Below are positions 8,096 through 55,400 of a DNA stretch of 64,000 nt, piece after piece (position 1 is the stretch's first letter; every line of letters begins with the position of its first letter). Where the stretch lies: the NCBI GenBank assembly GCA_021613535.1, contig CP075493.1:3596001-3660000 (forward strand), given 5' to 3'. Made by a program: the position numbers and the translations under genes. Origin of the DNA: Adineta vaga (taxonomy: Eukaryota > Animalia > Rotifera). The notes below the pieces were generated by a model. The model saw only the letters and a program-made list of their open reading frames with translations, did no database searches and was not told the origin of the DNA.

Positions 8096-8713
8096 TTAGT
8101 TGAATCCTGTTATTTGTGGATATTGCGTTGGTTGTCTTGTTGGTGGTTGTAATTCTTTAACTACTTTACAAGGATTTCCAACAGCTACAACATTTGCTGG
8201 TATATCCTTAACAACAACACTACCAGCACCAATAACACTATTATCACCAATGGTTACACCAGCAACAATAATAGCACCACCTCCAATCCATACATTATTT
8301 CCAATGCGAATAGATTTTCCATATTCGACTGCAGAAAGTCGTTGTTGAGGATCAGTTGGATGTGTAGCACCATAAAATTTCACATCCGGACCTATCAATA
8401 CAAAATCTCCCACATAAACTGGACAAATATCTAGTATAACTAAATTATAATTTGCAAATGAATTTTCACCCCAATAAATATTATAACCATAATCACATTG
8501 AAATGGTCTTTCAATAACTGAATTTGTTCCAAATTTACCAAATATTTTTTGTAACATTTCATTTCGTTTTTTCTCTTCACTTGGACGAGTAGAATTATAT
8601 TCATAAATGAAATCTTTACAAATGGCCCGTTCATTTAATAATTCTGGCGTAAATGCATTATATAATTCGCCAGCAAGCATTTTCTCTTTCTCACTACGTG
8701 TATCAGTCGACAT
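8096..8713 (-). CDS. maa: Maltose/galactoside O-acetyltransferase (Mac domain + left-handed beta-helix), intronless, non-metazoan type
   Basis: EKEKMLAGELY N-terminal Mac motif, PFQCDYGYNI, ATHP (catalytic His), hexapeptide repeats IGNNVWIGGGAIIVAGVTIGDNSVIGAGSVVVKDIP, AVGNPC. Confidence 0.92.
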   Translation of the reverse strand: MSTDTRSEKEKMLAGELYNAFTPELLNERAICKDFIYEYNSTRPSEEKKRNEMLQKIFGKFGTNSVIERPFQCDYGYNIYWGENSFANYNLVILDICPVYVGDFVLIGPDVKFYGATHPTDPQQRLSAVEYGKSIRIGNNVWIGGGAIIVAGVTIGDNSVIGAGSVVVKDIPANVVAVGNPCKVVKELQPPTRQPTQYPQITGFN

Positions 8714-9614
8714 CGGACAAATTTAAATCAATCTAAAATCATACAGAAAAATATTTAAAATACTCTATGTCTCTCGACATAAGTGTTATTGACCTACAAA
8801 AAGACATAAAAGTTCTATTTATACTGATTCAAACAAAAAATATGTACGTGTGGTGCAGTGCAAAATACAGATTGGAGGGTTAACAGAATCCAATCGATAT
8901 TTCATAAATATCTAAGTCGCTATTTTACTGTCATATGAAATTTGTATTTGTTGATACTTTCATTTGTTTTCTCACTCGTGTATATGAGGCAATGATTCAG
9001 ACTTGAAATGATTGTATTGTCTGCAAGGAAAAGGATCAATTATCATTGTAATTTCAATGAAGTTCTACAAGAAAATACTCGACAATGCACTAGTGCAATC
9101 TTTCGCTCATTATAGTTGCGTGATTCTTAGAATACATTTTTTATCATTGGTTCTCCGTAGATGAATCATATATGTTGTTCTTAGATTTTGTCACTGACGA
9201 TAACAACAACAACAACTCGATAGATGTTCGAATTTCTTTCTAAGAATATCGATAATTGACATTTCATTTACTTTATATAGCGTAAGAAAAGTATGATAAT
9301 GGAATTGGAATAAGTGTTTATGTAAGACGAACATAATATGGTAAAAAATTACTGACATAAGCTGAATTTAATGCAATAGCATTCTCTGTAAGAACATCTG
9401 ATCTAAGTTATAAAGATCAATTATATTCATATCACAATATTGTACAAACAATAACGATTGATTTATTAAAAACTCTTATTTGAACATGAAAACACGAATT
9501 TAATGTAACATTTTTTTGTATATTTCTTTTAAACAGAGAAAAAACCTCTCTATTATTTAAAACGTTTTATTTCTTTCTAATTTTATGTTTTTATCTCTTG
9601 TGAATAAAATAGAT

Positions 9615-32639: not shown

Positions 32640-33535
32640 TAGAGGTATATTTGATGAAATACTCGTTAGATGATTGCTTTGAAGCAGGTTCTGTTGTACG
32701 ACTTCAAAAAAAGAAAATAAACATAATCGATAAATTAGCTTTATAAAATTTATCAAACCCAGTTCGATTCATTGCTAGAATTGCTCACTGGATCTAATTC
32801 ATGATGATTGATCGACGTAGAAATCTCCGTGTAATAAACACAGAATGAAAAAAAAACCAGAATAGTGTAATAAATAACAGTAGCAACAATAGTCAAAAAG
32901 ATCTAAAAAAAAAGGCAAGAAATAAAAACAGAATTCTTTGTTCTTTTCCTTTCTTTTTCTTTCTTCGTCGTTCGTCATTCAACGTTTGACAAATCGTAGG
33001 TTTTCATATTTCTAAAAATAATGAAAAATTCGATACCATAGATTTTTATGAACACCAGACCAGAAAAGAAAAACACATCGTTCAATAAATATTTTTTTCC
33101 TTTACTTCCGTCTAGCTTTTTAGAATGAACTAATTGAATTGATTATTTTATATATTACTGTAGTGCGATCGACAAGAGAGAGACTGAAAGAACAGGAAAA
33201 AACTACTCGTGGCATACACAAGATACGACGAACGTTGATAAAAGAAATAATTGCGTGCATTCATCAGGATTATTTCTTTATTGGAGAATAGAATCAACCA
33301 ATAGATAATGATGAAAAACTTAATTAATAAAATCTCTTCGTTTTTCTTTTTTTTTCGAAAATTAATTATATTTAAAGGGATAACTCTCGAATAGAAGACA
33401 TTTTTTTCGAAATAATACGGAAAGTAAAAATTTATTGGTTGATTACTAAAAGAAACTGAATGGCGACCATGGGAATATATATTTATATTGTAGATTACTA
33501 TTCTTGTAAAGAGTTCTATTGTGTAAAATAAAACT

Positions 33536-34005
33536 ATGCTAACCCGACTCATTGCATCTGTTGCTCAATATCAACGTCCGTTGATTTCAACTTCATTTCG
33601 TTTTATAAATACAAGTGTAGTAAGATTAGGTGATGGAGATCATACAAAATCAAAAGCAGAAGAAAAAGCAGCAGCTGATTTGAAATCTCGTAAAGAAAAA
33701 CGATGGTTAGATACAGTTGCTTCTGACAGTGGTAAATATTAAGAAGTGAAGTACTGAACATCCTTAATATCATATTCCTTTTTTTTTTTGAAGAAGCGAT
33801 AGTCAAAGGTGAAAAACAACATGCGAAGAAACAAGGTGATCGTAAGAAGGATACAAGCAAACTTCAAAAAGATACGATCGACGCTATTCAAGATAAACAA
33901 GCAAAAGGTCATTTACAGAAACATGATGTTGGCCGACGAGATACGAAAGAAGAACGAGTCGGCAGTGGTCTTGGTAGTAGTAATACAAAATCAAAGAAAC
34001 ATTGA
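33536..34005 (+). CDS. Small hydrophilic protein with mitochondrial-presequence-like N-terminus (135 aa; exons 33536-33731, 33794-34005)
   Basis: MLTRLIASVAQYQRPLISTSFRFINTSVVRL (Arg/Ser-rich, no acidic residues) followed by a K/D/E-rich body with WLDTVASDSEAIVKGEK. A GT-AG intron restores an open frame to TGA at 34003-34005. Confidence 0.75.
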
Positions 34006-34486
34006 AGAAGTTGAAATCTGAATTCTAATTGCATTTTCTTCGTCTATTCATCCATCTGCTAGTCTACTATCAAATCTTGATTGATCTAGTTCTTTTTATT
34101 AGATTATATCATTTCATATATATCTCCTGTTTTTTTCTTCCCTTCTTTTATTTTTTATTGTAGTGTAGAACCGTATGATTGACTTTTTCGACTCATCATC
34201 CCTGTATTTGCACCGATGTCTGTGTGTTTGAATGGAAAATAAAATATTCGAAAAATGATATCTAACAATCGCCATTGAATAAGTTAGATTTTTCTCTCAC
34301 GTACTCAGTAGTAGTTAAAAAACAAAATAATAATCTATTGTAATATTCTTCGAAAAATCGCGTAAGATATTCTATAAATCCATCTATTTGTTTATAAAAA
34401 AGAAGAAAGAGTCAAAGTATACACATGCTCTATCTATTAGGAAGAAAAATTGGACAAATGGGGAAAAACAGTTCGTTATATGTTGT

Positions 34487-34657
34487 TCACCAATTGGGTT
34501 CTTTCATTCCGCCCACTAATTGACTTCGATTACGAAAATAATCTTGTCGAAGATTTTCATGTTTTTGAACAAATATTGAATAAGCAATAAATGGAAATAT
34601 ATACCAACGCTTAATGCAAACTTCTTTCAACCAAAAACGAGTTACTTCGAGTGCCAT
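34487..34657 (-). CDS. NDUFB1: NADH dehydrogenase 1 beta subcomplex subunit 1 (MNLL), 56 aa
   Basis: MALEVTRFWLKEVCIKRWYIFPFIAYSIFVQKHENLRQDYFRNRSQLVGGMKEPNW: one TM segment, then FRNRSQL (compare FRNKSML in NDUFB1, from memory) and a terminal W. Confidence 0.65.
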   Translation of the reverse strand: MALEVTRFWLKEVCIKRWYIFPFIAYSIFVQKHENLRQDYFRNRSQLVGGMKEPNW

Positions 34658-35026
34658 TTTGATATTTGTAGCTTCGTCAACTACGTTTGTAAATAAATTT
34701 TCAAACAAATAATCAAGATCAGGACTAAAACAGAAAGAAAAAGATCGATGTGTTGATTTGTCGTTAGTATTGATGGTGAGTCATTCATTGATATGAACAT
34801 TTATCTATGATTGGATAATTTATTTCTAAGAAAAAAATGAATATAAAAATAAAATCAATGAAAGTTTTCTTAATATTTTTTTCGTAAAAGTTCGATGAAA
34901 TTTTCTTATTGGTTAATTTCATATCCGATAAATACCAAAGTCCATCCAACAACAGTGTGAAATATGTATCTATCAAGTACAGACTAAATCAGCGTTTTTT
35001 TCTCTCTCTCTCTCTTGAGCAATATC

Positions 35027-36119
35027 ATGGGCCTTTGCAAATGTCCTCAACGCAAAGTGTCAACTTTATTTTGTTTTAAACATCATGTCAATGTTTGTGA
35101 ATCATGTCTTGTCAACGAACACAATCAATGTATTGTACGTTCATATGTATCTTGGCTACAAGATAATGATTTCAATCCAAATTGTGCTCTTTGTCAACGA
35201 TCATTAACTGAAACTGGTCAAGAAACAATACGTCTTATATGTTATGATCTCTTTCATTGGCCATGTTTAAATGAATATTTTCGTTCATTTCCAAATCATA
35301 CAGCACCCGATGGATATACATGTCCAACATGTCATACATGTGTATTTCCACCTTCGAATCTTGTTTCACCGGTTGCTGATAATGTACGAGCAAAATTAGC
35401 GACGGTAAATTGGGCAAATCGATTGCCAATGCTATCATCTCATGATTCAACTTTTAATCCAGATAAACAACAATTATTAACTGAAACAGAAAATAATGGT
35501 TATGTTATTGTCAATCCAACTGTTAGTGCAAATAGTACAGAACATCTAGGAACAACGAGTGGATTATCACATCATCCACATCGTTCTATTGATATGTTAC
35601 AAGGAGCAACAGTATTAACAACAAGAGTATGTCCTATTTTACAGTTCAAGTTTTTAAATATATATTTCACATCTGAATTGAATTAGTATAGCGAAAAAAA
35701 CGAGATTGAAATAGTCGTTAAAGTTCATCTAGTTTTAAAACAAGACTGTAATCAATTATATTTGATTTCAGCCACCACAAATGGATTTTGATGATGAAGA
35801 TAAATATAAACGTCGTAGTGTATTTACCTGGTTTGCTCGATGGCTACGTTCTCGTCAGTCGACATCTCGTAAAGGTATTTTAACTAGTAATCGTTCGCAA
35901 GTATCTCGTATTCGTTTTACAATTTATACGATCTTAATTGTTCTATTTGTATTCATAACAATTCTAACCGTTTTATATCATTTAACACGTGGTGATAACA
36001 ATGAACATTTAGATCGTATTAATGATCCACAATTTAATCCATTAAATAATCCATTTATTCGTGTCGGTAATCGTCTATTAAAGAATCCTTTAAAAGACTC
36101 GAATCAAGCAAAATCGTAA
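35027..36119 (+). CDS. ZFPL1: Zinc finger protein-like 1 (Golgi), multi-exon
   Basis: [27 protein letters not shown]...[40 protein letters not shown], a TM segment, [14 protein letters not shown]. Confidence 0.95.
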
Positions 36120-36319
36120 TACATACATTATCAATCACGTTCTTTCTTTTCTCTTCATTTGTTGGTTTATTTTTTATTTCATATGGCAGTTTTCTTTTTT
36201 TGTATATCGATAAATTTTGTTGTTTTAAGCAGTACAAAGACAAACAAAACTAAACCTAATTCATCTATTCTTTTGGAAAGAAAAATTCAGATATTTATTT
36301 ATTTATATATTTCTAGATA

Positions 36320-37000
36320 ATGATGATGATGATGAATATTATTCGTCGTTTTGTTTCAACTTCAACGGAAAATAGTTCTTATACTATTTCATCACGTTTA
36401 CTCAATCGTAATCCACGTACACTTGAATGGCAAAATTTACAATGGCGTGCAACTGGTTGGCCATTGCAATATCCACCAAAAGATTATTTACATCGTGCAC
36501 GTCTTCTTTCATCTGGTCGACATTTAATTGCACAAATTGATCATTATTCAACGGGAAATGTTTGTGTACAAGCATCTACACGAGAATGGGCGATTCGAAA
36601 ACATCTAGCAACTTGTAAAGATCGTTCAGTTGCGTATAATCTTGCTTTAATTCTAGCACAACGTGCCGAAGAATGTGGAATAACAAAGATCTATTTTGGT
36701 CATCCACATGATCAAAGATACGATAAATCATCTCGATTACAATATTTTTATCGTGGTTTAATTGATTCAACTATTGAATTTGAACAAAGAGAAAATAGTC
36801 AAATACAAATGACAAGAGATTCAATTGATGGTATCAATTATGATGAACATGAACGTGATGTGAGATATTCACCACCGAATATTCATTATCCACCTGATAC
36901 ATATCAAGAAAAATTACATTATTTTCAATTAGGATTGAATAAAACAAATGAACTTGTAGAAAATAATGATACAAATAAAGAAAGCAAAGTTTTGTCATGA
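36320..37000 (+). CDS. MRPL18: Mitochondrial ribosomal protein L18 (uL18m)
   Basis: NRNPRTLE, GW, VQASTREWAIRKHL, LAQRAEECGI. Confidence 0.88.
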   Translation: MMMMMNIIRRFVSTSTENSSYTISSRLLNRNPRTLEWQNLQWRATGWPLQYPPKDYLHRARLLSSGRHLIAQIDHYSTGNVCVQASTREWAIRKHLATCKDRSVAYNLALILAQRAEECGITKIYFGHPHDQRYDKSSRLQYFYRGLIDSTIEFEQRENSQIQMTRDSIDGINYDEHERDVRYSPPNIHYPPDTYQEKLHYFQLGLNKTNELVENNDTNKESKVLS

Positions 37001-37131
37001 TATATACATATATATATTCATGTGTTTTTTCGTTTTTATTTATAGATTAATAATACTGATAAATTACTGTGAAGAGAATATCAATTAGAATTTCTATTGA
37101 TACAATTGTTCTTTTTCTGTTTTTTTTTCAG

Positions 37132-37764
37132 ATGTTAAATCGTCTTGTTTTTCGTTCTCTTCCATCGTCAATATCATCACTTCAGCAATCATTTCGTTTT
37201 TTATCTTTAACATCAATCAATTACAAACGTACACATACAGATATACGTGAAGGAGCTGTTCGTGAGATAAATTTACATCCGGAAAATATTCAGACACCAT
37301 TAAGTATTAATGTTGATAAATATTATGGTGGATCTGGTCAAGTTCGCGAAACCGATTTTGAAAAATTAATTGGTGATACGAATAATCCAGAAATTCCACA
37401 AGTTAAATATGAAGATTTACCAATTGTTCATATTAAATGTTCACGTAACAATACATTAGCTGATGTGAGTGATTGTACAGGTCAACAGATATTTCGTACA
37501 TCCTGTGGTGTTGTTGGTTTTCATAATGCAAAAAAAGGTACAACAACAGCAGCACAAGCTGTTGGTATACATATGGGAAATAATTTACTACGACGAAATA
37601 TGAAATATGTACGAGTAGTGGTGAAAGGTATTGGACCAGGACGTTTAATGGCAATTAAAGGTTTACAATTAGCTGGAATTGATATTGTAACAATAACTGA
37701 TAATACGAGTATTCCAACATTACATGTTGGATTGTCACGACCGAAAAAAATGAGACGTGTTTAA
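37132..37764 (+). CDS. MRPS11: Mitochondrial ribosomal protein S11 (uS11m)
   Basis: Presequence-like start MLNRLVFRSL; LPIVHIKCSRNNT, SCGVVGFHNAKKGT, VRVVVKGIGPGR, ITDNT, RPKKMRRV. Confidence 0.93.
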   Translation: MLNRLVFRSLPSSISSLQQSFRFLSLTSINYKRTHTDIREGAVREINLHPENIQTPLSINVDKYYGGSGQVRETDFEKLIGDTNNPEIPQVKYEDLPIVHIKCSRNNTLADVSDCTGQQIFRTSCGVVGFHNAKKGTTTAAQAVGIHMGNNLLRRNMKYVRVVVKGIGPGRLMAIKGLQLAGIDIVTITDNTSIPTLHVGLSRPKKMRRV

Positions 37765-37803
37765 ATCTAGTTTTTCTTTGATTGTTTTTTTTTTGTATTT
37801 CAG

Positions 37804-38482
37804 ATGTCTAATCAATATCCAACAAGTACGACGAGTTCAGTTCGATCGTCTCAACCACGTCGAAAATGGTTTGTTAATTTACAGATGGATAAACAAGAAC
37901 GTGCAGCAATGGCTGTAACAACAACAGCAGTCACCACTGATAGTTCTGTCACAAGAACAACAACTGATGAACTTAATCTGGTACCTGTTGGTTTTACTAA
38001 AAGCGAAGTAAATGATATCGCTACTCCGGATGATGACGATCGTTTAATAGCAAGACGCTCATGGGATATAGCATTACAACCGATAAAACAATTACCGATG
38101 AATATGATTTTTGCATGGATGGCTGGTAATTCCTTTTCATTAATGTCAATTATGATTGTTGTGATGTTATTTATGAAGCCAATACAAGTAAATCATTTTG
38201 ACTTTTATTACCTATTGATACTGATATGTGTATGTGTTTTCCTTTTTGTAGTCGATTTTTTCTCTTAGTTCAGCATTTGCATCATTAGAACAAGAAGGTG
38301 TCGCTGGAAATATTTGGTTACTTAAAATAGTCTACTTTTTAGGTAATTTAACACATTTAGCATTGGCTTTATATAAATGTCAATCGATGGGTTTATTACC
38401 AACATATAACTCTGATTGGATTGCTTTTGCTGATCAACAAACACAAATGGAAATGACTGTTGGAGGATTTGCTTACCATTAA
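37804..38482 (+). CDS. EMC4: ER membrane protein complex subunit 4 (TMEM85), 2 exons
   Basis: RSWDIALQPIKQLPMNMIFAWMAGNSFS; second exon LALYKCQSMGLLPT..SDW, ending GGFAYH* at 38482. Confidence 0.92.
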
Positions 38483-38727
38483 ATTTACTGTTTGCTTATT
38501 TTTCTTGTTTATGCGTTCCATTTTCTTTTCTTTATGCACTACTATGCAAAGCAATAAAATTTCATAGGCATTCTTATCACCTATCCATTCATAAAAATCT
38601 ATTTCATGAACTACTAAACAAATAAAGGTACCATTCAATCATGTGGTTTTTCGAGATTTTCTCGTTAGTTTTCAACTCCATAGAATGATATAAATTTCTA
38701 CTTTTTTAAAGATAAATAAACAGTTGC

Positions 38728-39681
38728 ATGGCTAAATATAGAAATCAATTACCTCAACTTTCCGGTGGATTTTTCATCATTAGTGGTGGCTTAGAAACGT
38801 ACTTAGTTCATCAGAAAGGCATGAACCTTCCCTACTTTGCTGCAATCTGTGCAATGAAAGATCAATCAGGATGTAAATTCATCAAAGATTATCTATCTAC
38901 GTTCGTTCTTTTAGCACAAAAATACGGTGTTGGTGTTATTTTGCAATCACCAACATGGCGTGCCAGTCCTGATTGGCTTAAAAAACTAGGCTATTCTGAT
39001 CAAGATCTTCTCAGCATCAATCGTCAGGCTGTTGATTTACTTGTTGATATTCGTGAGAAGCATGAGACAGTAAACTCTCCAATTATTATCAATGGAGGTA
39101 TTGGTCCACGTGGAGATGGTTATAATTCTACGATCGTCATGTCACCTGATGAAGCACAAACATATCATTCAGCACAAATCAATGCTCTTAGTCAAACTAA
39201 AGCAGATCTAATAACTGCTTTCACGTTAAACTATTCCGAAGAAGCCATCGGAATTGCACGTGCAGCTAAAGCAGCTAGCATGCCTATTGTTATTTCATTT
39301 ACAGTCGAAACCAATGGACAATTACCAAATGGACAATCATTAAAAGAAGCTATCGAACTGGTAGATAATGCGACTGAGAAAACTCCCATTTATTATATGA
39401 TCAATTGTGCACATACGAGTGCATTTGAACAGCTCTTAAATCCAGAAGAAGCATGGGTACAACGAATCCGTGGATTCAAGGGTAATGCATCAAAAAAGAG
39501 TCATGCAGAACTGAATGATAGTAAAGAACTCGATGATGGTGATCCAGTAGAATTTGGGCAATGTAATCTTGCACTATTGAACAAGCTCAAAAATGTGAAC
39601 ATACTTGGTGGATGTTGTGGAACAGATATACGTCATGTCGAAGAAACATGCAAAGCATGTTGTAAAAGCAGACAATCATAA
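38728..39681 (+). CDS. Homocysteine S-methyltransferase, intronless, bacterial type
   Basis: MAKYRNQLPQL..GGLET, SPTWRASPDW, IGPRGDGY, ISFTVETNGQLP; Zn ligands INCAH and GGCCGTD; NASKKSHAEL. Confidence 0.92.
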   Translation: MAKYRNQLPQLSGGFFIISGGLETYLVHQKGMNLPYFAAICAMKDQSGCKFIKDYLSTFVLLAQKYGVGVILQSPTWRASPDWLKKLGYSDQDLLSINRQAVDLLVDIREKHETVNSPIIINGGIGPRGDGYNSTIVMSPDEAQTYHSAQINALSQTKADLITAFTLNYSEEAIGIARAAKAASMPIVISFTVETNGQLPNGQSLKEAIELVDNATEKTPIYYMINCAHTSAFEQLLNPEEAWVQRIRGFKGNASKKSHAELNDSKELDDGDPVEFGQCNLALLNKLKNVNILGGCCGTDIRHVEETCKACCKSRQS

Positions 39682-39955
39682 GAACTGATTATTGTATTTC
39701 GAGATAGTTGACGTTCTATCTTACAAAATAAAATGGTATTGACGATCATGCACTTATATGTTTCAGAAGGGTAGATAATCGTCCTGTTCTAGGAAAAAAT
39801 CTGCAGATGAAACCCTCGATAACAAAGCTTATTTGTAATTTCCAGTCTACTGATGATACAATATTTCGAAGTAAACTTTTTCTGTCTATTTATACGTCAT
39901 CAATTGTTAGCAAAAGTTCTGACAAGAAGCATGATTGAAAAATCAAATTAGACAG

Positions 39956-48861: not shown

Positions 48862-51229
48862 TTAAGTACCAAAACGTTTTCGTTTTAATGCTGGTGGTAA
48901 ACACTGTTCAACAATGGATGGTAATAATTCCACAACGAATAATTGTGTTGAGGATAAGAGTGTTACATGTAAAAGATATTTAAATTGTTTACAAACATGA
49001 ATAGGTGAATTTGTTTGATTTGTATTATTGAAAATTTTTGTATAAGTTCCCGGCATTTTCTTTCCACGTTCAATAATACTTAAATATGTTGAATCAATAA
49101 CAAAAAGTTTCTCTTTTGTATCATAGAATAAATTAATAATTGGACTTCGTTCCGAAAACCATTGTAATGGCATTCGTTTTAAATATTTACGTGTCCAATC
49201 CGAATATTCATTCTGTTGAATATCATATTCAATAATCGATCGATCAGCATAAGCACATGCTAAACGATCATTAGCAAATGACATTGCTGTACATTGATAT
49301 GTTTCTTGTGGTAATTGTGCAAGAATATGATAGGTTGAATTGAGATAAATTGTTACATGTCCATAACGATCTGCTGTAGCGATATATTTTGATGAAACTT
49401 CAAAATGAAGTGTTGATGGCAAACAGGAAATAATTCGATTAAGTTTATAAGGTGTTAAAGAAAAACAATATAATTGACTACGAGAATTTAATGCAAATAA
49501 TGAAGATGATTGAAAACGTAACTGAAGAATATTCTTAATCGATGAAAATGATTGATCCATATTTTGTTCATCGGAATAGGTTTTAATTGGAATAACACTC
49601 AATTGTGATTGTGGATCTAAACCTAGAGACAAACAAATTTAATCAATTCAAAATTCGTCGTATGAATGAATTCAATTACCTTGAACAACATAAACATGTA
49701 AACCAATTGTATCACCCATTGCAATTGTTACTTGTTCATCCGTTTTCGTTTTCTTAATTGCCATTGCTACAGTATCAATTCGAGCTTGATGTGTCGTCTT
49801 AATTTGAACAAGATTTTTTGGTGCACGTTCGAGAATATCTTCTCCATTCTCATTCATACCACCTTCTTTTCCTATTGACCATAATTCAATATAATCTCGA
49901 TATGTAAAAAGAAAATAATTTCCTTTTTGATGAATTTTATTTCGATGTTGAGTAAAATTAAAACATTTTCGCCAGAGAACAGGTGGCTTGGAATTATCAC
50001 GAACAATATCATGAACAAGTAATCGTGCATCAAGACCACCAGATATTAACATTAATTTATTACTTAAATTATGTTCTTTATTACGTAGAGAAGCAAAACG
50101 TGATGGAATTAATGCTAATGAACGTACATCATGTGAATGAGAATGAATCGAGATTGTTTTAATCCATTGTTTTGTTGAATCAGTTGTTGGTAATGTTGTC
50201 GATGCTGTTGTTACTGTTGATTTTGGTGAAACAAGTTCGATACGAACGATAACAGAATCAACACCAGAACAGAATAATGTTTGTTCATCAGATGATAATG
50301 CCATACAAAGTACATCAGCACGATGGGTTTGAAATGATCTAAGAAATAAGAACAAATGAATTCAACATATGAAAAGTTAAGGATGGGTGTGGCAAATGAA
50401 TTCATGACATCCTAATCTAGATTATAGATCAAATTGATATTAATTTCATAACCTACCGAATTAATGTTCCATAGACAGCATCCCAAACACATGTTCGACC
50501 TGATGAATCACCACTAAAAACCGTATAATCATCGGTAACAGCTAAACACCAAATAATTGTATCTTTTTGTCCACGTCGATTCGATGTTGATGATAATTTT
50601 CCTACATTAATTTGTTGAATTGTACGTTTTTGTCTTGTTGAACATATATAAATTCGATTGATACTTCCAGCAACCAAAAAATCATCATCATTTGTATGCC
50701 ATGCTAATGAAACAATACGTGCAGCTTGTTTACATACCGACATAGCTAAAGAGAATTGACTAGCATCCTAAACAAATCGTATTCATAGATAAATCACATC
50801 TCAAATAAAGAAATGTTTTACTTCATCAAGTTGATAAACATTGACATGTCCAGTTTCTGTTCCTACAGCAATTCGTCGTGTTGCTTCATGTTTTGCAATA
50901 CTCCAAATTGCTCCACCAGCAGCATGACATGATGTTAAAATTTCAAATGTTATTGGATCATAGGCAATTAATTGACCATCTAAACCAGCTGTAATCAAAT
51001 ATTTATCTAACCAAATAATCAATTCAGGTGAATGTGATGCATTTCGAGGTTGAATGGTACGTTCAAGTGTAAATGAATCATGACTATTCCATAATTCTAT
51101 GGAATGATCAGAACGAAGAACTGCTAATAGATGATTTGGTGATGAACTATGTTGATGATGAGATAGACATAGAATTGATGAAAGACGTGGCTTATAGAGA
51201 TGAGTACGATGTACGAGAAAATCACACAT
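48862..51229 (-). CDS. UTP4: U3 snoRNP-associated WD40 protein UTP4 (cirhin), 4 exons
   Basis: WD40 repeats, HRADVLCMA, HSHDVRSL, and the C-terminal LPPALKRKRFGT characteristic of UTP4/CIRH1A. Confidence 0.92.
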
Positions 51230-52458: not shown

Positions 52459-55400
52459 TTAGCTAATAGCTTTCAATGGTTCTGTTGAAACGACTGTCGG
52501 TGATGGAAATTGTCGTTGAAGAATCGAGAGAACAGAAGCAACATCTTCAGTTAATTTCGTTTCTAATATTGTTAATCGTCTAGAAAAATATTGATAAGAT
52601 ATTTTCTTCAATAACATAAGAAAAAAGATTGATTTACTTCGTCAATTCTTGTAGTCGATATTCGACACTTGATTGATAGGGATCAAATGTTGATGATTGA
52701 TTTGTCTAAAAGAAAATTGTTTTCGTCAAAAACAAAACCTTTTCAATCATTTTTTATGTTACAAACCATTGGAATTAATTCATCATTTACTGCTGTAAAT
52801 GACGAACGATGAAAAGCATTCAGTAATGATTGATTACCTAAAAAGAAAATTCTATCAAAATAAAGAATGTCTCGATGACATGAAAAATATACCATGAAGC
52901 ATCGATGCACCACTAAAAGATTTTTCTCGACGATCACGACGTCGTGCACCTATTGTACCAAATTCCAAATTAGCTGGAGTTATATCTTGACCAGCTAATT
53001 GTGGATTGAATTCAAGTATACCTTTGAAAGAAAATTCCAAATTTATTCAATATGATTAGTGTCTACATTAGACTTGTTTTTTTTTCTTATTTGGACAAAA
53101 CCAGCTGTTAAACAGGGTCGATTATCCTTTCGAAAGACATCAATTTTGGTCTCAGATGCTCAAATGATATTTCATATCGTCGATCGTATTTCATCTCATA
53201 AATAAATAATTATTCGCAAGTCAAACATACAATTAAATTAATGATCAATTAGCTAGCGATAAATAGCAAAAAATATTCAACAATCTAATAGCATTCATTA
53301 TAATTGCTTGATAAAAATTTCCTTCTAAGTACATTTATATTTTATTGTGAAGAGATATTGTTTGAAAAACAAAATCTACGTACAGTGACGTTGTTAGGGT
53401 TTTTTTAACGTGAGATGACTTTTAAGAATAACACTATGATAAGAACTTGTTTATTTTCTTTTCTTTCGAGACAAGTCTGATGAAGAATCGTTGTGTTAGC
53501 AAACTAGAGAAAAGGACAACTCTGTGATGTGCAAAAAATATAGGCAGTCATATCAGCGAAGAAGGAAAAATGCAGTAAACAAACTCTTGTTTTCTGCCTC
53601 TTCTTTTACGCCTCTTACTCAGGTCATTCACGTCATACGCTCGGTATCGGCTGACTAACGTATGAATGTCGATCTTTTTTTCCCTTCGATGTACGAAGAT
53701 ATCTCTCTATATATAAGGAGTGGTGTAAAGGAATGTGTGCATGTTTGTTCGCCTTTTCATCGGAGACAAGATAACGTTTCCCCCTGTGTCTACGATGTAC
53801 TGTTCATGGAAAGATATTTTTGGATACACGACCGAGAATAAGAAAGCGCAATAATGTTTCTATTCTTCATAATTTTTTCCAGATTTTCTCATTTCAACGT
53901 ATCCTATTTGCAACTGTATAGATCAAACTAATGGCAGATACACAACAACAATCCGCAGTTGTTTCTGATGTCCATACAGAAGTGAAAGAAACTAATACAC
54001 AAGGTAAATCATTTGTTCTCTGATGTTATAATCTAACTGATTTACAAATTATGATTGTTTTCAATAGATCAAAATGTCGAACAAAAAGGTAGCAAAGGAT
54101 CAAATTTTCATATTATATATGTTTATCTATTCGTATTTAAAAGGTGCCGAAGTGAAAGCTGCAGCAAGTGAAGTTGTTGATGCAACAAAAGAGAAAGCTG
54201 CTGAAGTGAAAGATGCAGTACAAACAGCAGCTGATGATGTAAAACCTGTCGTTAATGATGCGAAAGAAGTTGGTATGTATTTTCTTCTTTTTACTTTGAA
54301 TTATTCAATTAATTAACGGAGTAAAAGTTTTAGTAGGAGAGCATATACTTATTTATTTAGACGAACATTGACTTTCCATAGAAAGAACAAGGGAAAAAAC
54401 CAATTTATTAATAACCCAAGGGAGAGTTAGTTTTTCATCCGAAACGTCTCTGAAGAAGAATGTTTATTTTCTTAGATATGATTACAACCTAGAATTTATC
54501 ACTATATAAAATTTTTGTTATCTATTTTTAGGTGCTCAACTTGTTGGTGAAGCAAAAGATGCAGTAGAGAAAAAGGTTGACGAAGCAAAAGAAGCTGGTG
54601 CACAATTAGCCAATGATGTATCACAAAAAACTGAAGAAGTTAAACAAGTTGCCCAAGAAAAAGTCGATCAAGCGAAAGAAACAGGAGCTCAATTAGCAGA
54701 TGATGCAGCAAACAAAGCAGAAGAAGCAAAAACTACGATTGTTGAAACAGCAATTCATGCAAAAGATGTTGCAGTTGAAAAAGCTCAAGAACTTGGACAT
54801 GCTGTTAGTATTCAACTCAAGTTTTTTATCTCGGAGATTCATTCCTTTCTTTTAGGTTGCCGAATCCGTACAAGCCGTTCCTTCAGCTGTAGCTGGTGCT
54901 GCTAACTTAGTAGGCGAACAACTTGCAGCTGCTGGACAATGGGTAAGTTTCTCTATAAGAGAAAGGATTCTTTGAATTTGAACAAAATTTTTTCTAGACT
55001 GCAGAAAAAGCAACTGAAGTCGGATCAGCTGTTGTTCATTCAGCAGAAGAAGCATTACAAAGGTACTCTTTTTTAATCAGGAAGTTTTCTCGTTAAATGT
55101 AGATGTTTATTTAGTCTTGCTGGATTAGCGACGGCTGCGAAAGACAAAGGTAAACTTTAGTATACCGTTAAAATAGAAGAAAACTCTTAGTTTCTATTTG
55201 ATCTGCAGTGACTGAAGTAGTTAGTCAAGCTATAGATAAAGGTAGATATATCATTTTATTCTAACGTGTCAATGCTTAAATTTTTGTCTATTTCACAGGT
55301 ACTGAACTGGAAGAGCAAGCAGCAGAAAACGTTGAAGACGCAAAAGATAAAGCTAGTGAATTAGCTGCTGATGCCAAAGAAAAAGGCGAAGGTCAGTATT

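Follow-up and report, generated by a model that had tools for sequence, protein, structure and literature searches.

A probable operon of ZFPL1, MRPL18, MRPS11 and EMC4, resolved by spliced-leader trans-splicing, in Adineta vaga, a bdelloid rotifer

Operons without intercistronic DNA are known from Ciona intestinalis and, as a minor class, from Caenorhabditis elegans (PMC1488885). For Ciona it was proposed, and left unproven, that trans-splicing itself makes the upstream message's 3′ end (PMC1488885). Bdelloid rotifers possess a spliced leader (SL) (Pouchkina-Stantcheva and Tunnacliffe 2005, as cited in PMC1925144 and PMC3795323), as a first, sequence-only reading of the DNA described here had assumed, and over half of their transcripts carry it; no leader was found in expressed sequence tags of Brachionus (PMC1925144). 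A methods paper of 2021 calls rotifer operons unreported, and a paper of 2025 (PMC12460157) names rotifers in passing, by citation and without rotifer data, among the lineages with "trans-splicing and operonic transcription". Operons have been predicted to occur, possibly, in every species with trans-splicing (PMC2776167), and this lowers the surprise of such a finding. No paper describing a rotifer operon was found in the openly accessible literature (PMC8494291 contained none of four terms checked; bdelloid genome papers and their supplements may mention operons), in keeping with the remark of the sequence-only reading that operons are little characterized in this phylum. Here, a stretch of 64,000 nt from Adineta vaga was analyzed (the window; coordinates are within it and on the plus strand unless stated). 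Its genes ZFPL1, MRPL18, MRPS11 and EMC4 probably form an operon resolved by SL trans-splicing, a known kind of unit that is likely new for rotifers.

The four housekeeping genes lie head-to-tail. ZFPL1, which would be the first cistron, is encoded at 35027–35626 and 35772–36119 (315 amino acids; intron 35627–35771). It is followed by the intron-less genes MRPL18 (36320–37000, 226 amino acids) and MRPS11 (37132–37764, 210 amino acids) and by EMC4 (37804–38187 and 38252–38482, 204 amino acids; intron 38188–38251), the presumed last cistron. Pfam matches were obtained to L18p for MRPL18 (under the Pfam cut-off), to S11 for MRPS11 and to EMC4. MRPL18 also matched the mammalian uL18m chains of solved structures with an E value of 5e-20, and ZFPL1 scored 0.98 against ZFPL1 clusters of the Atlas. 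The closest named relatives are from bdelloid rotifers, MRPS11 for example being 88% identical to that of Adineta steineri. The reading frames confirmed stop-to-ATG gaps of 200 nt (ZFPL1–MRPL18), 131 nt (MRPL18–MRPS11) and 39 nt (MRPS11–EMC4) on one strand, the close spacing expected of an SL operon. Each downstream gene also has an acceptor-like AG behind a T-tract, ending at 36316, 37131 and 37803, as had been noticed from the letters. A T-rich stretch with an AG within 0–3 nt was found at 32 of the 2900 ATG triplets of the window, compared with 3 of 3 downstream gene starts. As a null this is generous, given that more than half of bdelloid transcripts bear the leader in any case (PMC1925144).

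RNA was examined as assembled contigs in 4 of 24 listed runs (X1, X4, X5 and X6), representing up to three studies; runs that shared only a small proportion of words were left out. The contigs behave as RNA, and the introns of ZFPL1 and EMC4 are both skipped in all four runs. DNA carry-over was not apparent, because none of the four runs covered 34768–34991 and exon cover fully accounted for the depth in the bin of the ZFPL1 intron (three runs checked).

At the first junction, the MRPL18 contig of X5 (record 16) opens with eight non-genomic letters, TTACCAAG, before the AG at 36315–36316. Together with this AG they are the exact 3′ end of the published rotifer SL (Table 1, PMC3795323). The leader is joined at 36317, which gives an MRPL18 trans-splice acceptor at 36315–36317, one of three sites for which the sequence-only reading had proposed a search of RNA data. 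The 11-letter leader end was not found in the window with up to one mismatch allowed, and a local cis exon was rejected as the source of the letters, as the window holds none and the letters equal the published leader. In the same run, a spliced ZFPL1 contig (record 15) spans the 200-nt gap through to 36317 and then continues with 16 A. A separate polyadenylated ZFPL1 message is therefore present, and its poly(A) site (36316/36317) agrees with the leader site of MRPL18 within one base. The spacing between poly(A) site and acceptor is 0–1 nt, compared with the spacer of about 100 nt in SL2-type operons. Because the ZFPL1 poly(A) falls at the MRPL18 acceptor AG, the first gap is the whole ZFPL1 3′ untranslated region (UTR; 36120–36316), without a spacer. 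Internal priming was rejected as the source of the poly(A), since the genome has no A-run at 36317. Two other X5 poly(A) ends, at 34258 and 39752, lie about 15–20 nt downstream of AATAAA, as expected; the ZFPL1 end has no AATAAA. The short motif AAAT[T]CAGATA at 36283–36293, shortly upstream of the MRPL18 acceptor, is kept in 6 of 6 aligned sequences and is a candidate spare acceptor or 3′-end element. The MRPL18 start is a run of five ATG codons (36320–36334), to which X5 adds one more; related loci have a single one.

A leader on MRPL18 requires that RNA reaches upstream of the acceptor, into the ZFPL1 3′ UTR. This RNA would more probably originate from the ZFPL1 promoter than from a promoter within ZFPL1, because poly(A) site and acceptor coincide; the same argument was made for Ciona (PMC1488885). 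All four genes are thus likely transcribed together from one promoter upstream of ZFPL1, and leader splicing likely divides the precursor into messages of one gene each. We slightly favor a mechanism in which the 3′ end of ZFPL1 would be released by trans-splicing itself, through its cut behind the AG, and would then be tailed. The alternative is ordinary cleavage on the same base, with one precursor giving either the upstream or the downstream message; it keeps considerable weight because of one A of ambiguity at 36317. The proposal of the sequence-only reading, a polycistronic precursor resolved by SL addition, finds support in the leader at 36317, in RNA contigs across the 39-nt gap and in a gene order conserved among bdelloids; its first gap has to be redefined as a 3′ UTR.

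The leader-bearing X5 contig extends to 37128 and stops in a T-run, three bases before the end of the next AG. It covers 128 of the 131 nt of 37001–37131, which comprise the MRPL18 3′ UTR and the predicted MRPS11 acceptor (AG at 37130–37131). The corresponding MRPS11 3′ UTR with the predicted EMC4 acceptor (37765–37803; AG at 37802–37803) is crossed unspliced by contigs in X1, X4 and X5, from two studies, and lies outside the cover of X6. Where a path leads through, short tips are commonly trimmed by assemblers, and this may hide leader or poly(A) ends at this junction. A further X5 piece of about 30 nt, with a depth of about 427, lies over 37780–37784. It would fit a poly(A) tip at the EMC4 acceptor but may also be a stray T-rich match. 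Leader addition is predicted at 37132 and 37804, and the second and third junctions would likewise have no spacer.

A metagenome scan yielded nine related loci from five lineages, 77–88% identical to the window over MRPS11. MRPS11 and EMC4 adjoin in all nine, with a gap of 31–42 nt and an AG immediately before the ATG, and an AG also immediately precedes the MRPS11 ATG in 7 of 7 loci containing that start. All four genes are present in order in five loci (L001, L003 and L006–L008; three lineages), with first gaps of 71–146 nt and second gaps of 42–65 nt; the remaining four loci are too short or start too late to show ZFPL1. The 39-nt gap of the window has no AATAAA, as first reported, and neither AATAAA nor ATTAAA occurs in any of its three gaps. 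This absence was rejected as evidence for an operon, since only 0.75 AATAAA are expected by chance per 370 nt and AATAAA is present in the first gap of L001 and L006–L008 (4 of 5 loci with that gap), so that its absence is not conserved. In locus L009, 35 nt separate MRPS11 from an EMC4 that has no intron, and the sequence stops 14 nt past an AATAAA; it looks like an unresolved two-gene cDNA. In Rotaria sordida, R. magnacalcarata and Rotaria sp. Silwood1 and Silwood2, accession numbers advance by about 3–20 from MRPL18 to MRPS11 to EMC4; in R. socialis, A. steineri and Didymodactylos carnosus they do so from MRPS11 to EMC4. This numbering indirectly fits neighboring genes in two taxa of Adineta and five of Rotaria, and a MRPS11–EMC4 pair in Didymodactylos. 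A 939-amino acid model of A. ricciae, which fuses all four genes, was also counted in favor of the operon. A second, more divergent bdelloid copy of EMC4 was found on other contigs (P0223, P0114 and P0179).

On its 5′ side the cluster is bounded by a gene for 56 amino acids on the minus strand (34487–34657). It lies head-to-head with ZFPL1 at a distance of 369 nt, likewise in L006–L008, and therefore the unit cannot begin further upstream. The gene is conserved, with 92% DNA identity to L006–L008 and 11 synonymous versus 2 non-synonymous codon changes, and has RNA contigs in 2 of 4 runs. Its protein had no match in Pfam, PDB or the Atlas; by its size and C-terminal motif it may resemble the complex I subunit NDUFB1. 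The intervening 34658–35026, aligned with L006 and L007, probably holds a bidirectional promoter, likely shared by both genes, and the ZFPL1 5′ UTR. Conserved blocks were found at 34777–34783, 34808–34820, 34908–34912 and 34966–34979, followed by a pyrimidine tract from about 34993; the conserved blocks include CCAAT-type words. In L006–L008 no AG lies between this tract and the ZFPL1 ATG, which would suit a first cistron without a leader. The ZFPL1 contigs bear 28–30 letters before 35022; the 5′ end of the gene falls within a repeat skipped in contig placement. At the other side, the first AATAAA past EMC4 (38553–38558) would mark the end of the unit.

Several observations weigh against the operon. 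The leader and the poly(A) at 36317 come from one run with one contig each, and the other three runs have no listed contig on this junction. Contigs are not molecules, and none crosses the first or the second junction. RNA cover is missing at 36986–37226 in X1 and X4 and at 37129–37226 in X5; because no run covers 37129–37226, the MRPS11 start is unreadable in RNA, and uncovered stretches were counted as proof of nothing. No leader was seen at 37804 among 16 of 20 loose contig ends and 32 of 89 pieces, only read-through contigs. The second gap of L004 (and of L002, by 95% identity) measures 605 nt and contains an AATAAA together with two CCAAT-type words. L009 might instead come from the DNA of a species in which the EMC4 intron was lost, and the MRPL18 gene of Didymodactylos has distant accessions and lies on another contig. 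The stretch of about 600 nt between MRPL18 and MRPS11 (817–1421 in L004, 2–598 in L002) matched neither the window nor any of the other loci. Rfam gave no matches in the window or in the 7 of 9 loci scanned, and thus no known RNA gene lies in the gaps or in the 605-nt insert.

The dependence on one run, and on contigs only, raises the question of whether the leader and poly(A) ends are artefacts of assembly or library in a cluster that is merely dense, the more so as letters that we take to be adapter-like follow the poly(A). However, the eight non-genomic letters are an exact published leader at a predicted AG, nine such letters recur at 33494 in two runs of two studies, and neither the genomic sequence at 36317 nor the regular position of the two other X5 poly(A) ends behind AATAAA points to an artefact. 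We regard this as the least probable of the explanations weighed here.

A more serious alternative, although an unlikely one, is that every gene is transcribed from a promoter of its own, situated within the gene upstream of it, that the leader merely replaces a 5′ outron and that the packing reflects compaction, or that an operon is combined with such internal promoters. The widespread trans-splicing of bdelloid transcripts, in operons or not (PMC1925144), counts against the operon here and suits this alternative, as do the gene at 33494, which receives the same leader end and has no upstream RNA, and the long second gap of L004. The earlier argument that the 39-nt gap has no room for a promoter holds for the gap itself and leaves a promoter inside the upstream gene possible. 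What separate promoters leave unexplained is a poly(A) placed on an acceptor AG and a gap of 31–42 nt kept in 9 of 9 loci while the flanking genes changed. Moreover, the conserved promoter-like blocks lie before ZFPL1 and not in the gaps of the window, the noncoding stretches compared. Within 300 nt upstream of ZFPL1, CCAAT or ATTGG occurs 2–4 times, compared with no occurrence in the three gaps, an absence that is weak given a window average of about 0.6 per 300 nt. The operon therefore stays the preferred reading.

The AGs might also be cis acceptors, with splicing that joins the genes into fusion messages such as public gene models imply: the annotation of A. ricciae contains, besides the 939-amino acid model, one of 624 amino acids (three genes), and that of R. 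socialis one of 410 amino acids (two genes). A GT at 37726 in MRPS11 would agree with this. However, no such joint was present in any of the four RNA runs, and at 36317 it is the leader that is joined and no upstream exon; the cis-splicing to upstream exons that the sequence-only reading had named as grounds for refutation was not observed at this site. The models use donors that vary with the species (behind IPTLH versus behind KKMRR), the annotation of A. ricciae contains the genes in both fused and split form, and fused models are a known annotation artefact at operons (PMC12582326, PMC7986045). Splicing into fusion messages is very unlikely. Because the donors differ between species and the RNA contains no such joint, the fused public models are considered annotation errors, and real fusion proteins were rejected.

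Other genes of the window were also inspected. The plus-strand gene at 33494–34258 is leader-spliced, with an intron at 33731–33792, an AATAAA at 34238 and a poly(A) at 34258. Its leader end matches in nine letters exactly in X4 and X5. The final 8–9 non-genomic letters agree between 36317 and 33494, a comparison that covers the 3′ end of the leader only, and the gene is at most a candidate monocistronic one. Its product is small and highly charged, with a targeting-like N-terminus and no Pfam match. An extension of the unit upstream to this gene was rejected, as the gene ends in a poly(A) and the minus-strand gene lies between. Downstream, an intron-less homocysteine S-methyltransferase gene (38728–39681, plus strand) is expressed, with a poly(A) at 39752; it was possibly acquired horizontally and is a candidate only. 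Extension of the unit to this gene was unsupported: it is not adjacent in the related loci, and no leader letters were listed for it. The minus strand carries a second operon-like run at 51229–46882 and on to about 43800, in the order WD40 gene, 151 nt, Cu/Zn superoxide dismutase (SOD1), 123 nt, SSU72, 163 nt and a fourth gene, which likely carries QRICH1/DUF3504 domains. Judged from sequence only, each of its starts follows an AG, and the three internal starts lie behind T-rich stretches. AG followed by AT was found at 8 of 8 gene-start acceptors, as against 2 of the 12 in introns (Fisher p 0.0007, or 0.0015 when the two sites with ATG directly behind the AG are left out); two of these eight are leader-verified and the other six were chosen by eye. 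The window further contains a maltose-acetyltransferase-like gene (8099–8722, minus strand) and a weak LEA_4 match (54510–54902, plus strand).

The second run would fit a picture of many spacer-less operons in bdelloids. We consider the chances evenly balanced for this wider proposal, in which such operons would be conserved, leader splicing at AG followed by AT would make the upstream 3′ end without AATAAA, bdelloids would be the third animal lineage of this kind after Ciona and the SL1-type operons of nematodes, and the operons would be masked as fused gene models. If the operon of the four genes holds, operons exist in a phylum for which the methods paper of 2021 states none reported, with base-level RNA evidence for a rare spacer-less design. 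An animal that can be cultured would then allow tests of two points: whether the upstream 3′ end is made by trans-splicing itself, and whether neighboring cistrons exclude each other on one precursor. The stretch of about 600 nt in L002 and L004 offers a natural test of operon break-up. Operons of chaetognaths (PMC12460157) and the lack of a leader in the Brachionus tags (PMC1925144) make gain and loss traceable within Gnathifera. The bdelloid models of 939, 624 and 410 amino acids are likely wrong, with consequences for gene counts and for studies of expression.

In comparison with known systems, the cluster shares with the SL2-type operons of C. elegans and the operons of Oikopleura, Schistosoma and chaetognaths (PMC1488885, PMC12582326, PMC12460157) the packing of same-strand housekeeping genes, resolution by a leader and misannotation as fused genes. 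Spacers measure about 100 nt in SL2-type operons, 23–30 nt in Oikopleura and a median of 99 nt in Schistosoma, whereas no spacer exists at the first junction here. For chaetognaths, a distance under 250 bp served to define operons (PMC12460157). The SL1-type operons of C. elegans (PMC1488885, PMC7986045) likewise show hardly any intercistronic sequence, or none, and use a general leader. They differ by an AATAAA in the upstream cistron, which the window lacks and L006–L008 possess. The operons without intercistronic DNA of Ciona (Satou et al. 2006, PMC1488885) belong to a chordate, in contrast to the spiralian studied here, use another leader and mostly comprise two genes instead of four; in addition, the abutment was found here at one junction only, and L006–L008 have an AATAAA before the first acceptor. 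Ciona and the window agree in an upstream poly(A) that follows the acceptor AG directly, with no AATAAA nearby. Unresolved two-gene RNA, as suggested by the contigs across MRPS11–EMC4, and the use of one leader inside and outside the cluster, as suggested by its last 8–9 letters, would be further parallels. With the SL trans-splicing already described for bdelloids, the cluster shares the 3′ end of the 23-nt leader itself.

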